64,000 bases of DNA from the NCBI RefSeq assembly GCF_016026235.1, contig NZ_CP065613.1. One strand, given 5' to 3'. Positions within the stretch are counted from its first letter, which is position 1. Each line of letters opens with the position of its first letter. Below the pieces are notes generated by a model. The model was given only the letters and a program-made list of their open reading frames with translations. It was not told the DNA's origin and searched no databases. Of this stretch, positions 30,973-47,184 are shown piece after piece. This stretch comes from Escherichia coli. Its GTDB lineage: Bacteria; Pseudomonadota; Gammaproteobacteria; Enterobacterales; Enterobacteriaceae. Position numbers and translations under genes: made by a program.

Positions 30973-31506
30973 ATGAGCGCAAAAATCAAATACGGCCTGT
31001 CGGCTGCTGTTCTGGCGCTGATTGCCGCAGGCGCGTCTGCTCCCCAGATACTTGACCAGTTTCTGAACGAAAAAGAGGGTAATCACACAACGGCATACCG
31101 TGATGGTTCTGGCATATGGACCATCTGTCGTGGTGCCACAATGGTGGATGGTAAGCCTGTCATACCGGGAATGAAGCTGTCGAAGGAAAAATGTGACCAG
31201 GTTAACGCTATTGAACGTGATAAGGCGCTGGCATGGGTGGAGCGCAATATTAAAGTACCTCTGACCGAACCACAAAAAGCGGGTATAGCGTCATTTTGCC
31301 CCTATAACATTGGCCCCGGTAAGTGTTTCCCGTCGACGTTTTATAAGCGGCTGAATGCCGGTGATCGTAAGGGCGCATGCGAGGCGATTCGCTGGTGGAT
31401 AAAAGATGTTGGGCGCGATTGCCGCATACGTTCAAATAACTGCTATGGACAGGTTATTCGTCGTGACCAGGAAAGCGCATTAGCCTGTTGGGGGATAGAT
31501 CAATGA
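30973..31506 (+). CDS. SAR endolysin (T4-lysozyme-like muramidase)
   Basis: 177 aa; N-terminal hydrophobic signal-anchor-release segment ([16 protein letters not shown]) followed by E…D…T catalytic triad region. Confidence 0.8.
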
Positions 31507-31970
31507 GCAGAGTCACCGCGATTATCTCCGCTCTGGTTATCTGCATCATCGTCTGCCTGTCATGGGCTGTTAATCATTACCGTGATAACGCCATTACCTA
31601 CAAAGAGCAGCGCGACAAAAACGCAAGAGAACTGAAGCTGGCGAACGCAACCATTACTGACATGCAGCAGCGCCAGCGTTCTGTTGATGCACTCGATGCT
31701 AAATACACGAAGGAGTTAGCTGATGCGAAAGCTGAAAATGATGCTCTTCGGCGCAAGCTTGATAATGGTGGTCGGGTGCTCGTCAAAGGAAAATGCCCTG
31801 TGCCAGCCTCAGCCAAAACCTCCAGCGCCTCCGGCATGGGCAATGATGCCACCGTCGAACTCTCTTCAGTTGCTGGACGAAACGTTCTCGGTATCCGGGA
31901 CGGAATTATCCGCGACCAAACAGCACTGAGAACGCTTCAGGAATACATCAATACGCAATGCCTGAATTAA
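31503..31970 (+). CDS. Rz i-spanin
   Basis: ATGA overlap with the endolysin stop; N-terminal TM helix and coiled-coil periplasmic domain. Confidence 0.7.
31723..31929 (+). CDS. Rz1 o-spanin lipoprotein, embedded in Rz in the +1 frame
   Basis: Signal peptide with lipobox (MVVGCSS) and proline-rich mature part. Confidence 0.65.
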
Positions 31971-32011
31971 TCCCTCTGTATCAAAAACGAACTCAATTTG
32001 TTGGATAGTGA

Positions 32012-32323
32012 ATGAAAATTTATATTGCCGGGCCAATGACGGGATATGAGAACTTTAATCGTGACGCCTTTAATAAAGAGGCAGATCGTTTGTCACGACA
32101 TGGTCACTCTGTCTTGAATCCAGCCACTTTGCCTAATGGTCTGACACAACGTGAATACATGGATATTTGCTTTGCAATGCTTCGTTGTGCGGATGCTATT
32201 TTGATGCTTCCTGGCTGGAAAGCGTCTGCTGGAGCAACTGCTGAGTATCATTACGCATACAAGATGGAGATGCCGGTATTCACTACGCTGAATTACCCGC
32301 CAGCTTGTTCCTCTGCAGTATAA
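32012..32323 (+). CDS. Small protein with a nucleoside 2-deoxyribosyltransferase-like N-terminus (DUF4406-like)
   Basis: 103 aa beginning MKIYIAGPMTGYENFN…VLNPATLP…; sits between the lysis and packaging modules. Confidence 0.45.
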   Translation: MKIYIAGPMTGYENFNRDAFNKEADRLSRHGHSVLNPATLPNGLTQREYMDICFAMLRCADAILMLPGWKASAGATAEYHYAYKMEMPVFTTLNYPPACSSAV

Positions 32324-32869
32324 AAATCTCTTTGTTTCTCGTGTGCGATCGTGGTCGCTCGCTAAATTCCGCGCTGCATCGTCGCCGTATTTCCGCATTA
32401 ACTATGACCGTAGCCCGACGGGGAACTCCTTCTGCGCGAGTGTGCGGGAATAATCAAAAACGATGCACACCGGGTTTTTACCGCGTTTATGGTTCGCGGG
32501 TTTGTCCCTCATGCTCGCCAGTCCTGTGCGGGGGTGGAAGAAACAGGACACTTACACTGATTCTTGTGGGTACGATGCTATTCCTTTCTGGATTATCCCG
32601 ATGTCATTCATGCAGGGCGCTGTATCAGACGTTCGTCATGGCTGTCAGGCTGACGGGTCCTCCCGGTGGGGTGGCCTGCCACGGGGCGGGAGCGGCGCGG
32701 AAAAAGGCTAGTTTTTGAAATTTCATTCGTCATCACCACTACTGTAATGTATTGATATTACAGTGGTTTTATTTTTGTGCTGTCGGTTTTGATTGTTTTT
32801 TGTTCATCACTAACACCGTTTGCCTAAAGTTGTTCGCAAGATGCATGTTTAAAACATTCTGGAGCGGGT

Positions 32870-33363
32870 ATGGATCGAGAGTTAAAAAATCTGACGCTGA
32901 ATATCAGTCAACTGGCGGCACTGTCAGGTGTACATCGCCAGACTGCTGCGGCAAGGCTGCAAAATCTACCCGTTGCAGGGGGCATGAAAGCAACCTCAAG
33001 CTTTATCGGGTGGTTGATATTGTGTCGGCATTTCTGGCATTACCACCGCCGGTTGCAGAAGGCGAAATGGACGCGCATGAGCGCAAAGCCTGGTATCAGT
33101 CTGAACGTGAGCGTCTTAAGTTCGAACAGGAAACGGCACAACTCATTCCGGCCAGTGATGTCAGACGGGAGTTTGCCATCTGGGCAAAAGCGGTCGTGCA
33201 GGTGCTGGAGACATTACCGGATATTCTTGAACGTGACTGCGGTCTGCAGCCTGCCGCTGTGAGCCGTGTTCAGTCCATTATTGATGATCTGCGCGATCAG
33301 ATAGCCCTGCGGGTGACTGAAGCAGGTGCGGATGATGAGGAGGAATTACAGCAGGAGGAGTAA
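32870..33363 (+). CDS. Terminase small subunit, reading frame broken once
   Basis: N-terminal HTH-like segment (MDRELKNLTLNISQLAALSGVHRQTAAARL) in one frame, C-terminal part (…NLKLYRVVDIV…EEELQQEE) in the -1 frame; bridged by adding one G to the G5 run at 32978..32982. Confidence 0.6.
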
Positions 33364-35443
33364 TGCTGAATCAGGAAACCGCAAAGGCAGCACGAACCGA
33401 TTCAGGTTATATCCTTCGCGCACCAAGACGAATGCGGGTTGCTGATGCCGTTGCTCAGTATATGCGGGTGCCCATGGGGCAGGGAACTCAGTCCCGTGGG
33501 ATCCGCTGGTGGCACCGTATGTTATTGAGCCGATGAACTGCCTGGCCTCGCGTGAATACGACGCAGTGATATTTGTTGGCCCGGCACGAACCGGCAAGAC
33601 TATCGGCCTGATTGACGGCTGGGTGATTTACAACGTGATTTGCGATCCTGCTGATATGCTGATCATTCAGATGACGGAGGAAAAAGCCCGCGAACACTCC
33701 AAAAAACGACTCGCCAGAACGTTTCGCGTCAGCCCGGAAGTGGTCAGTCGCCTGAGTCCGAACAAAAATGACAACAACGTTTATGACAGAACATTCCTTG
33801 CTGGCAACTACCTGAAAATCGGCTGGCCGTCAGTCAATATCATGTCCTCATCAGATTATAAATGCGTCGCGCTGACGGATTATGACCGTTTTCCGGAAGA
33901 TATTGATGGTGAGGGGGATGCTTTCTCTCTTGCCTCAAAACGTACCACAACATTTATGTCCAGTGGTATGACGCTGGTGGAGAGTTCCCCCGGCAGGGAT
34001 GTGAAGGATGTGAAATGGCGACGGACTTCACCGCATGAGGCTCCACCAACCACGGGGATACTGTCGCTCTATAACCGTGGCGATCGCCGTCGCTGGTACT
34101 GGCCCTGTCCACACTGTGGTGAGTATTTTCAGCCCTGCGGCGATGTGGTTGCTGGTTTCCGTGATATTGCCGATCCCGTGCTGGCAAGTGAGGCGGCTTA
34201 TATTCAGTGTCCTTCCTGTTCAGGACGGATTATGCCTGAACAAAAACGTGAGCTGAACGGACGTGGGGTCTGGTTGCGGGATGGTGAATCCATCAATGCG
34301 GATGGCAGTCGTTATGGTGATCCCAGGCGTTCACGTATTGCGTCATTCTGGATGGAGGGTCCGGCAGCTGCTTACCAGACACTCTCGCAACTCGTTTACA
34401 AACTGCTTACTGCAGAACAGGAATACGAGACAACCGGAAGTGAAGAAACACTCAGGGCGGTTATCAACACCGACTGGGGATTACCTTATCTTCCCCGCGC
34501 CAGCATGGAGCAACGAAAAAGTGAACTGCTTGAGCAGCGGGCAGAGCCTGTTCCTCCCCGCTGCGTGCCGGATGGTGTTAATTTCCTGGCGGCGACAGTG
34601 GATGTGCAGGCGGGACGTCATCGCCGTTTTGTGGTTCAGGTAACGGGTTATGGTTGCCGTGGCGAACGCTGGATTATTGATCGTTACAACATCACGCAGT
34701 CATTGCGTTGTGACAACAACGGAGAAAGCCTGCGAATTGATCCTGCTGGTTATCCTGAGGACTGGGATGTCCTGCTGACGGATGTTTTTCATAAAAGCTG
34801 GCCGTTGGCCTCCGATCCTTCTCAACAAATGCGACTGATGGCAATGGCGGTGGACTCCGGCGGTGAAGACGGGGTCACTGATAATGCCTATAAATTCTGG
34901 CGTCGTTGCCGTCGTGATGGCCTTGGTAAACGTATTTACCTGTTTAAGGGCGACAGCATCCGGCGCGCAAAACTGATCACCCGTACATTCCCTGATAACA
35001 CCGGACGAACGGGCCGACGGGCGCAGGCCGCAGGTGATGTGCCGCTCTGGCTTCTTCAGACGGATGCCCTGAAAGACCGGGTGAATAACGCGTTATGGCG
35101 TGACTCGCCAGGTCCCGGCTATGTGCATTTCCCTGACTGGCTGGGGAGCTGGTTTTACGACGAACTGACGTATGAAGAGCGGAGCAGTGACGGGAAATGG
35201 AGTAAGCCGGGTCGAGGTGCCAACGAAGCTTTTGACCTGATGGTGTATGCCGAGGCTCTGGTCATTCTGCATGGTTACGAGAAAATTCAGTGGCCGGATG
35301 CGCCGGAATGGGCATGCAGGGAAACCTGGCTGGAGCGTGTCAGGGACGATGCCGGACTGTCAGCCTCGCCGGAGCCGGTATCCGTGTCCGTTAAAAAAAG
35401 AAACGAAAAAAAGTGGTGCCTGATGAAGAAAACCCATGGGTGA
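33363..35443 (+). CDS. Terminase large subunit (lambda gpA-like)
   Basis: Walker A VGPARTGKT and CPHCG zinc-finger-like motif; TAATG coupling with SD GAGGAG at 33363, but the frame then needs +1 C near 33493..33495; alternative in-frame ATG at 33446. Confidence 0.75.
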
Positions 35444-45398: not shown

Positions 45399-45727
45399 TG
45401 GAGACGTTTCACTGGAAAGTGCGCCCGGATATGAATGTGGTATCAGAGCCGAAAGTGGTGACAGTGAAGCTGGGCGATGGTTATGAACAGCGTCGTGCGG
45501 CGGGACTGAATAACCAGTTGTCGACTTACAGCGTGACGATACGTGTTCGTAAAGGTGAACACCCATCTTTAAAAGCCTTTCTGGAACGGCACGGTGGCGT
45601 CCGCGCATTTCAGTGGACGCCACCTTATGACTGGAAGCCGATCAGGGTGGTTTGTCGTAAATGGTCGGCAAGCGTGGGGGCGTTGTGGGTAACCATAACG
45701 GCAGATTTTGAACAGGTCGTGGCATAG
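45398..45727 (+). CDS. Minor tail protein M
   Basis: 109 aa, same length and position as lambda M. Confidence 0.75.
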   Translation: METFHWKVRPDMNVVSEPKVVTVKLGDGYEQRRAAGLNNQLSTYSVTIRVRKGEHPSLKAFLERHGGVRAFQWTPPYDWKPIRVVCRKWSASVGALWVTITADFEQVVA

Positions 45728-46435: not shown

Positions 46436-47184
46436 ATCCCATGACAGAGACAGAATCAGCGATTCTGGCGCACGCCCGGCGATGTGCGCCAGCGGAGTCG
46501 TGCGGCTTCGTGGTGAGAACACCGGAGGGGGAAAGATATTTTCCCTGCGTGAATATCTCCGGTGAGCCGGAGGAGTATTTCCGGATGTCGCCGGAGGACT
46601 GGCTGCGGGCAGAGATGCAGGGTGAGATTGTGGCGCTGGTCCACAGCCACCCCGGTGGTCTGCCCTGGCTGAGTGAGACCGACCGGCGGCTGCAGGTGCA
46701 GAGTGATTTGCCGTGGTGGCTGGTTTGCCGGGGGGCGATTCACAAGTTCCGCTGTGTGCCACATCTTTCCGGGCGGCGCTTTGAGCACGGGGTGACGGAC
46801 TGTTACACGCTGTTCCGGGATGCTTACCATCTGGCGGGGATTGAGATGCCGGATTTTCATCGCGAGGATGACTGGTGGCGTAACGGTCAGAATCTCTATC
46901 TGGATAATCTGGAGGCCACAGGGCTGTATCAGGTGCCGTTGTCAGCGGCGCAGCCGGGCGATGTGCTGCTGTGCTGTTTTGGTTCATCGGTGCCGAATCA
47001 TGCCGCCATTTACTGTGGTGACGGCGAGCTGCTGCACCATATTCCTGAACAACTGAGCAAACGAGAGAGGTACACCGACAAATGGCAGCGACGCACACAC
47101 TCCCTCTGGCGTCACCGGGCATGGCACGCATCTGCCTTTACGGGGATTTACAACGATTTGGCCGCCGCATCGACCTTCGAGTGA
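46432..47184 (+). CDS. Tail assembly protein K (JAB/MPN plus NlpC/P60-like)
   Basis: HSHPGG JAB motif and a Cys/His peptidase-like C-terminus. Confidence 0.8.
   Translation: MNPMTETESAILAHARRCAPAESCGFVVRTPEGERYFPCVNISGEPEEYFRMSPEDWLRAEMQGEIVALVHSHPGGLPWLSETDRRLQVQSDLPWWLVCRGAIHKFRCVPHLSGRRFEHGVTDCYTLFRDAYHLAGIEMPDFHREDDWWRNGQNLYLDNLEATGLYQVPLSAAQPGDVLLCCFGSSVPNHAAIYCGDGELLHHIPEQLSKRERYTDKWQRRTHSLWRHRAWHASAFTGIYNDLAAASTFE

Follow-up and report, generated by a model that had tools for sequence, protein, structure and literature searches.

We conclude, with a probability of about 75%, that the 546-bp gap at positions 32324-32869 of the Escherichia coli window (the whole stretch of 64,000 nucleotides that was analysed) holds two independent elements, a lambda-type cos site (32655-32869) and, to its left, a structured RNA (32369-32552), referred to below as the module. 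The window covers the late region of a lambdoid prophage, with a lysozyme gene (30973-31506), Rz to its right (31488-31970) and a gene for a 103-aa nucleoside 2-deoxyribosyltransferase-like protein (32012-32323; phrog_355) bordering the gap on its left. On the other side of the gap lie the gene for the small terminase, TerS (+ strand; Shine-Dalgarno GGAG at 32861-64, ATG at 32870), and, next to it, that for a gpA-like large terminase, TerL. The original prediction described the gap as poor in ORFs, and we likewise found it covered by short or implausible ORFs only; RefSeq/PGAP leaves it without annotation in most E. coli genomes that share the same DNA. It had also been described as GC-rich, which is not the case, the GC content of the whole region being 0.498 vs 0.501 for the window. 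The region is instead a GC mosaic, with values of 0.565 in the module, 0.81 from cosQ to cosN (32653-32695) and 0.37 in cosB and the TerS leader (32696-32869). The closest phage relatives across the gap are 569R4, mEp460, Ayreon and mEp460_4F5, at 95-97% identity. Between the two elements is a spacer (32553-32654) that is common only to mEp460-type phages and includes a unit, GCTGTCAG (32642-32649), that is repeated in tandem two to four times in some relatives. A search with ARAGORN found no tRNA or tmRNA gene within 32200-32900.

We have high confidence that 32655-32869 adds one more, ordinary member to the lambda-type cos family. We joined the two ends of the lambda record, right to left, and aligned the junction with the window: lambda reads ACGGGTCCT-N23-ACG/GGGCGGCGACCT/CGCGG and the window ACGGGTCCT-N22-ACG/GGGCGGGAGCGG/CGCGG (slashes bound the cohesive end). 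The window therefore has, on the + strand, the same cosQ as lambda, GGGTCCT at 32655-32661, the subsite for packaging termination and a motif that the record of phage 434 annotates as cosQ, with a distance from cosQ to the nick of 22 nt as against 23 nt in lambda. It is followed by a 12-nt cosN cohesive end, GGGCGGGAGCGG (32684-32695, + strand), which we placed by the lambda alignment and by the record of phage cdtI and which stands in the context CACG/GGGCGGGAGCGG/CGCGG. Bases 1-6 of the cohesive end are identical to those of lambda, and the differences are confined to bp 7-12 (bp 7, 8, 9, 11 and 12). Variation in precisely this half, which is free to vary, has been described for Gifsy-1 and N15 (PMC4669245), and that the window shows the same pattern argues for a cos site. 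In addition, the cdtI record ends with CCTGCCACG and starts with GGGCGGGAGCGTCGCGG, and so was opened at exactly the predicted nick base. To the right of cosN is an I2-like segment, CGCGGAAAAAGGCTAGTTTTTGAAATTTCA (32696-32725, + strand), which is homologous to lambda bp 13-42 and invariant among relatives.

Further support came from an alignment of 72 distinct sequences from upstream of this same small terminase. Five or more left flanks that are unrelated to one another meet exactly at GGGTCCT, which is invariant in nearly all of these 72 sequences, and homology with phages that have other left flanks ends at cosQ. The spacer between cosQ and cosN is variable across the 72 regions; CACG/GGGCGGGAGCG and the CGCGGAAAAAGGCTAGTTTTTG that follows it, the latter homologous to lambda I2, are invariant. 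The site sits directly upstream of TerS and the gpA-like TerL, as the cos site of lambda does, and the flanking CG dinucleotides are also shared. The small terminases themselves differ: TerS of the 99.5%-identical phage 569R4 is a Pfam DUF1441 protein (E = 3e-41) with an N-terminal HTH, and not Nu1 as in lambda. A further likeness is to the cos sites of the cdtI/Gifsy type, which also go with DUF1441. They have the same cosQ and cosQ-cosN spacer as the window, agree with it in 11 of the 12 cohesive-end bases and begin I2 in the same way; the 12th base is G in the window and T in cdtI and most relatives, and cosB diverges beyond I2. The prophage would, by these comparisons, be a lambda-like one with a small terminase of the DUF1441 (Gifsy/cdtI) type. 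Its terminase is predicted to nick the top strand between 32683 and 32684 and the bottom strand 12 nt rightward, opposite 32695/32696, which would leave the 5' overhang GGGCGGGAGCGG, and cosQ at 32655-61 would signal the end of packaging. Our literature search did not find experimental end-mapping for this phage group, nor an experimental dissection of a DUF1441-type cosB. The record ends of mEp460, Ayreon and mEp460_4F5 were considered as mapped termini and rejected, because they are arbitrary or set by reference (the Ayreon genome was opened arbitrarily and that of mEp460_4F5 is numbered relative to references).

The original prediction had pointed to a palindrome at about 32745-32775, roughly 100 bp upstream of TerS, as marking the expected place of a cos or pac site. 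The palindrome exists and ends 103 bp before the ATG at 32870, but its position is 32738-32767; likewise, a cos site is present in the gap, but the palindrome is not where it is cut. It lies about 45 bp to the right of the predicted cut, at cos positions 55-84, inside cosB. Its arms, ACTACTGTAAT and ATTACAGTGGT, are complementary at 10 of 11 positions with 8 nt between them, and an alternative pairing gives 13 pairs, including G·T, around a 4-nt loop. Such a stem is moderately unusual: when the region was dinucleotide-shuffled 1000 times, an equally good one turned up in 21 cases. At the palindrome's centre (32745-32757) lies a perfect IHF core, the counterpart of lambda I1: on the minus strand TATCAATACATTA matches WATCAANNNNTTR, and the central TAATGTATTGATA is the exact complement of WATCAANNNNTTR. 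This match is the sole one in the region and one of six in the 64-kb window. Among 49 distinct variants, the core is perfect at cos position 62 in 43; in cdtI it is found at position 64, a nearly equal distance. The palindrome arms, by comparison, are the most variable part of a cosB that is otherwise invariant in the 49 variants, and the group with an 87%-identical TerS has no comparable palindrome. A T-tract adjoins the palindrome (32767-32776) and may be read either as the A-tract of an IHF site or as the U-tail of a hairpin terminator. On the consensus strand it is an A-tract about 9 nt 5' of the IHF core. An A-tract in this place is also found at strong IHF sites, attP H' among them.

Short repeats flank the IHF core. 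A candidate TerS-binding repeat in the R3 position, TCGTCATCACCAC (32727-32739, + strand), is invariant among relatives; it recurs in inverted form at 32777-32786, on the other side of the IHF site, and in direct form at 32802-32811. Lambda R3, too, has TTCGTCAT beside it, and the spacer of the window has a second one at 32632-32639. The partner at 32777-32786 is a candidate R2-like repeat on the minus strand, inverted and reading GTGCTGTCGG (GTGGTGTCGA in most relatives), and GTTCATCACT at 32802-32811 (+ strand), a third and direct copy TTCATCAC, is a candidate R1-like repeat. Repeats and core together appear to reproduce the R3-I1-R2-R1 layout of lambda, a likeness that we infer from short repeats only. 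As in lambda, the IHF site would lie between inverted repeats in cosB; the window differs in that its repeats share no sequence relationship with the R sites of lambda and its IHF core is some 15-20 bp closer to cosN. Because the IHF core is at its centre, between the flanking inverted repeats, we favor, with some reserve, the interpretation of the palindrome as an accessory cosB/IHF feature and not as the cut site. IHF would bind the core and bend the DNA, and the bend would bring the inverted repeats at 32727-39 and 32777-86 to a TerS dimer, the way R3-I1-R2 do in lambda.

Could the palindrome and the T-run instead be primarily a Rho-independent terminator on the + strand? Such a terminator would block read-through from an upstream moron into the head genes in the lysogen and would be overridden by Q-modified polymerase in the lytic cycle. 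A terminator scan does flag the site (13-pair stem, 4-nt loop and TTTTATTTTT tail), the hairpin is stable as RNA (-14.6 kcal/mol, z = -3.2), and most close variants retain it, several of them via arm changes that are G·U-compatible (G·T in the DNA) or compensatory, or via shifted pairings, one lineage having a shifted palindrome TAATGCA/TGCATTA. Nonetheless, the stem is AT-rich, with G-C at only 3 of 13 pairs, and several variants no longer have the hairpin, including L159, L182 and L204 with an identical TerS. The hairpin is also missing from cdtI and from the group with an 87%-identical TerS, whereas the TTGAT core and the T-tract persist, and the palindrome occupies the position of lambda I1. 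We therefore regard a primarily terminating role as unlikely, albeit worth keeping in mind. The two roles are not mutually exclusive, and given the stability of the hairpin and its detection by the terminator scan, it is possible that the palindrome serves secondarily as a weak terminator, one that Q-modified polymerase may read through.

The second element is of a different nature. It had been suggested that the ~400 bp upstream of the palindrome could encode a structured RNA, and an RNA-like element is indeed found there, a module of 184 nt on the + strand (32369-32552) for which covariance and a strand test argue. We derived eight helices, including an H-type pseudoknot, by RNAalifold and manual inspection. 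A long irregular 5' hairpin domain is made up of P1 (32376-82/32460-66), P2 (32388-94 and 32396-98 with 32442-44 and 32446-52), P3 (32409-13/32432-36) and P4 (32414-16/32421-23), and is followed by a variable hairpin, P5 (32472-74/32506-08) and P6 (32481-85/32495-99). The 3' domain comprises P7 (32521-27/32543-49) and the pseudoknot, in which the five bases 5' of this last hairpin (CUCGC, 32514-18) pair with the start of the hairpin's loop (GCGGG, 32528-32). The segments AUUAAC, GAGUGUG, AAUAAUCAAAAAC, CACAC and GGAAGAA are conserved and unpaired, and the GGAAGAA loop, in the 3' pseudoknot domain, is invariant.

Support for this fold comes from comparison of the copies and not from the stability of any one of them; by folding energy the window copy does not do better than shuffled sequences (z = -0.44), and so gives no thermodynamic support. 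In a MAFFT alignment of 32 diverse copies that was fitted to no structure, 96.3% of cells pair, and 13 of 40 pairs change on both sides as against 3.8±1.5 in column shuffles (a value reached in 0 of 500). When the pairing scheme was slid along this alignment as a control, 36-60% of cells paired, with 3-8 two-sided pairs. With the pseudoknot included there are 45 pairs, 16 of them two-sided vs 5.8±1.8 in shuffles. The pseudoknot is itself 93% paired, three of its five pairs being compensatory: the CUCGC/GCGGG of the window is replaced by GUCGC/GCGAU or GCCGC/GCGGU in other lineages. A model-guided alignment of 63 distinct copies, which leans toward the covariance model, gave 97.2% of cells paired and 14 two-sided pairs vs 4.9±1.6, and over both alignments 35-63% of cells paired in the slid controls. 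Related sequences may beat shuffles even where there is no structure, a caveat that is weakest for the pair-count measure used here, and the module sequences are fairly close (74-97% identity) and many pairs never vary. The strand test compared 96.3% of cells paired on the + strand with 87.4% on the - strand; the fold fits the + strand better because 132 cells are G·U. Taken on these comparisons, the module is probably a real, conserved and structured element on the + strand, that of the late transcript, a conclusion we hold with good confidence.

The module is also far from peculiar to this prophage. A covariance model (R1) finds one copy in the window, at 32369-32552 with 208 bits, and further copies in lambda (46867-47036), in the DLP12 prophage of K-12 (579008-579178), where it lies unannotated between borD and ybcV, and in Sp10 of strain Sakai. 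By distant BLAST, positions ~32371-32548 of the window recur in 438 phage records, always downstream of lysis genes; the phages concerned include lambda, 434, 933W, Stx1 and Stx2 phages, BP-4795 and Salmonella ES18. Among complete E. coli genomes, 3993 of 5426 (~74%) have the module. A scan of species-representative genomes with an exact core pattern yielded 11 loci, mostly in Escherichia, and so added little phylogenetic depth. The module is sharply delimited at either end. It stands after Rz or bor in 131 copies, with the packaging genes 112-1654 nt further on, and those packaging genes are of the Nu1, DUF1441, 933W and HNH/P27 types; the module thus occurs with at least four unrelated types of small terminase. 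A leftward DUF3950 gene often stands between it and the packaging genes, as it does between module and terminase in 434, BP-4795 and Stx2-1717; tblastn and Pfam searches found no such gene in the window. Conversely, only 36 of 80 loci with the terminase of the window have the module in full at up to 700 bp, and in about nine it is decayed, from which it follows that the module is not part of cos and that it is dispensable for at least some prophages. The module would appear to travel as a self-contained mosaic unit at the junction of lysis and packaging genes of lambdoid phages.

What might such a module do? Upstream of it nothing is conserved, a promoter included, which leaves the late transcript from pR' as the only shared source of the + strand that we can infer. 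The RNA would most likely be made within that transcript and probably act in cis or after processing, for instance by controlling how the downstream morphogenesis mRNA is processed, how stable it is or how well it is expressed. For the module, we rank a role in cis within the late transcript first, ahead of a small RNA, a DNA-level feature or a protein, although we propose it only tentatively. Structured RNAs that act in cis in lambdoid phage transcripts have a precedent in the put RNAs of HK022, which modify RNA polymerase. The put sites are found just downstream of early promoters and consist of two stem-loops. The likeness would extend to a structured RNA within a lambdoid operon transcript that acts in cis; the module differs in having no sequence or Rfam similarity to these RNAs and in being a pseudoknotted 184 nt that lies, in the late operon, between the genes for lysis and those for packaging. 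Comparison with Rfam 15 gave no match at E <= 1 over 31500-33500, and a permissive scan of the module returned chance matches to miRNA and lncRNA families, at 10-20 bits vs thresholds of 45-70. Literature searches by sequence strings and locus names gave nothing relevant, and a paper describing the module was not found in the searchable literature, which does not extend to the lists of a csRNA catalogue (PMC10690425) of about 8,500 candidate structured RNAs from IMG/VR, where a fragment of the module may already be listed. That the module represents a class of pseudoknotted RNA that is functional and undescribed, and that lambda and most lambdoid prophages carry in their late operon, seems to us to fall slightly short of an even chance. 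It may be of the ribozyme, riboswitch or protein-binding type, and may control the hand-over from lysis to morphogenesis or contact a host factor. Two more specific ideas did not hold up. Long-range pairing between the A-rich loop and the TerS leader matches at 15 of 16 positions in the window but is not systematic, the best duplex averaging 12.6/16 downstream vs 11.8/16 in upstream controls over 90 contexts, and a 10-codon mini-ORF from an ATG at the 5' edge of the module was rejected as the ATG is missing in the window, in ES18 and in lambda-type copies.

One alternative to a cis-acting RNA is a trans-acting, Hfq-type prophage small RNA made in lysogens, of the kind of AgvB/AsxR, PreS or EcOnc. 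In the module, the A-rich loop AAUAAUCAAAAAC, which is conserved, is similar to the A-R-N motifs of Hfq, prophage regions are rich in small RNAs (PMC4104026), and the Hfq-CRAC peaks EcOnc10/11/12 of E. coli O157 Sakai (Tree et al., 2014) adjoin the module in Sp12, Sp10 and Sp9, in the same intergenic neighborhood between Rz and terminase. At face value their coordinates even fall inside the module; calibration with AgvB, however, revealed an offset of about +140 in the current RefSeq version, which puts EcOnc10-12 beside the module on the opposite strand. The calibrated EcOnc11 peak lies 20-70 nt beyond the 3' border of the module, at a hairpin plus U7, the terminator of a DUF3950 gene not present in the window. 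Moreover, the module has neither a conserved promoter in front of it nor a terminator at its 3' end, since homology stops right after P7, and a multi-helix pseudoknotted fold of 184 nt is atypical for base-pairing small RNAs. None of the known small RNAs that we considered (PreS/LPR1, LPR2/6S, svsR, Pas, AgvB/AsxR and StxS) is the module, since their positions in the phage genome are different ones: PreS lies between ea10 and ral, LPR2/6S is found at pR', svsR lies within cI, and the anti-sRNAs occupy the moron site of pR'. The Rfam models of AgvB and AsxR did not match the module either. We consider this explanation improbable, and think much the same of the module as a DNA-level feature, whether a recombination "linker" or a promoter or regulatory region of leftward genes such as bor. 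The sharp mosaic borders on both sides would suit a linker; the record of HK629 places a sigma70-like promoter, facing bor, on the minus strand of a lambda-type copy, and a leftward gene ends with its stop codon right at the module in lambda, 434 and K-12, observations that keep a DNA-level or minus-strand role feasible. But neither linker nor promoter predicts compensatory changes in 13-16 pairs, those of the pseudoknot included, or a bias toward G·U on the + strand; the window-type copy lacks conserved promoter hexamers; and in the window, 933W, BP-4795 and ES18 no bor or other leftward gene lies beside the module.

A further explanation of the gap would be that it encodes ordinary small proteins, the candidates being an 82-aa ORF (32463-32711) that is annotated in mEp460, a 137-aa ORF (32305-32718) and the minus-strand ORFs of 569R4. 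Some phage records do annotate hypothetical proteins here, the 82-aa ORF matches phrog_17397 (unknown function; E = 1.5e-50) and part of the 137-aa ORF matches phrog_6954 ("Rz-like spanin"; E = 4e-12). Yet the latter match is limited to residues that overlap the module, and the PHROG matches of the gap ORFs reflect annotation of the same DNA; the 49-aa minus-strand ORF has no Pfam match and the three minus-strand ORFs no PHROG match. The 82-aa ORF crosses the cos cut and is intact in 15 of 28 distinct close relatives, five having stops or a lost start and seven having indels that are not multiples of three. Its substitutions by codon position (12/10/16) show no third-position excess, nor is there a synonymous one, as 12 are synonymous vs 26 non-synonymous, where 23% synonymous would be expected at random. 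Module copies also differ by indels of 1 nt and 10 nt, so that the module lies in different frames across lineages and no frame is conserved. We judge a coding function of the gap to be very improbable. Nor did we find support for the upstream part being a gene wrecked by frame errors, as had been suggested, because against its 95-97%-identical relatives the window has no indels anywhere in 32371-32869. The accompanying suspicion of homopolymer errors is borne out for the adjacent TerS and TerL only and not for the gap itself: TerS (at 32978) and TerL (at 33476) are each short of one homopolymer G relative to a 99.5%-identical phage. As both copies thus carry a 1-nt frame break, the cos site may be inactive in this prophage, if the breaks are real.

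The assignment of the cos site is routine but useful, as it provides exact predicted genome ends for the common E. coli prophages with a DUF1441 terminase and corrects several database records that were opened arbitrarily or have ORFs annotated across the cut. The RNA module is the weightier of the two elements. If our reading of it is true, lambda itself carries, at 46867-47036, an unannotated folded RNA at a fixed place in its late operon, and the same RNA would be present in DLP12 of K-12, in Shiga-toxin phages and in about three quarters of complete E. coli genomes. It would then pose a testable question about post-transcriptional control of the late genes of lambdoid phages, which include the expression context of Shiga toxin and of the lysis genes, and the genetics with which the module could be tested in lambda already exist.

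Full copies of the 184-nt structured-RNA-like module (window 32369-32552, plus strand) lie unannotated in the reference genomes of both K-12 MG1655 (NC_000913.3 579008-579178, retrieved as sequence L138; 136 bits) and phage lambda (NC_001416 46867-47036, L007; 130 bits). In each of these genomes a leftward gene (ybcV in MG1655 and lambdap78 in lambda) has its stop codon only a few bases away from the right border of the module. The record of phage HK629 (NC_019711, L015) annotates a near-consensus sigma70 promoter on the minus strand (45479-45505) that faces bor and sits inside the lambda-type module, in its 5′ part. In the module variant of the window, which has no bor gene, these promoter hexamers are not conserved.

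The space between the module and the terminase is often occupied by a small leftward DUF3950 (YlcI-like) gene, as in phage 434 (L009, 880-1074), in the retrieved MG1655 sequence (L138, 4252-4446) and in two further retrieved sequences, L012 and L014. The product has a sequence pattern suggestive of a ribbon-helix-helix DNA-binding protein. The Hfq-CRAC peaks EcOnc11, EcOnc12 and EcOnc10, which were reported from the prophages of O157 Sakai (Tree et al., 2014), apparently represent the 3′ end (a hairpin plus U7) of the leftward DUF3950 transcript that adjoins the module. In prophage Sp10 (L230) this end lies at approximately 1946959-1947007 of NC_002695.2, on the minus strand; the published EcOnc coordinates and those of the current RefSeq version differ by an offset of ~140 nt.

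Are the ORFs that cover the module genuine spanin genes? Such ORFs carry the label “Rz-like spanin” in several RefSeq phage records (phage records NC_049920, NC_049925 and PV189403), as well as in PHROG phrog_6954. However, phage 24B has an ORF across the module whose 81-aa product, a hypothetical protein in the record of that phage, shows no obvious spanin features and, therefore, the label looks like an annotation carry-over from the adjoining Rz gene. Between Rz and the module, the window has a 103-aa gene (32012-32323) whose product is similar to nucleoside 2-deoxyribosyltransferase-like phage proteins (phrog_355, E = 3e-45). This gene appears to be a moron-type insertion where the lysis and packaging genes meet, and mEp460-type phages have a small ORF in its place.

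On the packaging side, comparison with phage 569R4 (99.5% identical) revealed that two homopolymers are each one G short in the window, at 32978 in the small terminase gene (G5 versus G6) and at 33476 in the large terminase gene (G4 versus G5), and that both reading frames are broken as a result. These breaks represent either homopolymer sequencing errors or a true inactivation of the prophage packaging genes.

Immediately left of the predicted cosQ (32655-32661), within 32642-32654, is a GCTGTCAG unit, which is present in two to four tandem copies in some relatives (L156 and L185); its expansion is a small variable repeat. At the predicted cohesive end (cosN, 32684-32695), the IMG/VR contig 2778261085_000005 (L189) starts ~1 base to the right (equivalent to window ~32697), possibly because the assembly broke at cos. 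In the record of the related phage Ayreon (MF807953, L003), 141 bp are inserted precisely at cosN, aligned to window ~32687-32696, and this insert holds a partial copy of the phage's own small-terminase gene. Because the Ayreon assembly was made with scaffolding and GapFiller, the insertion looks like an assembly artefact arising at physical DNA ends and, if so, it would be indirect evidence that the virion DNA ends at cosN.
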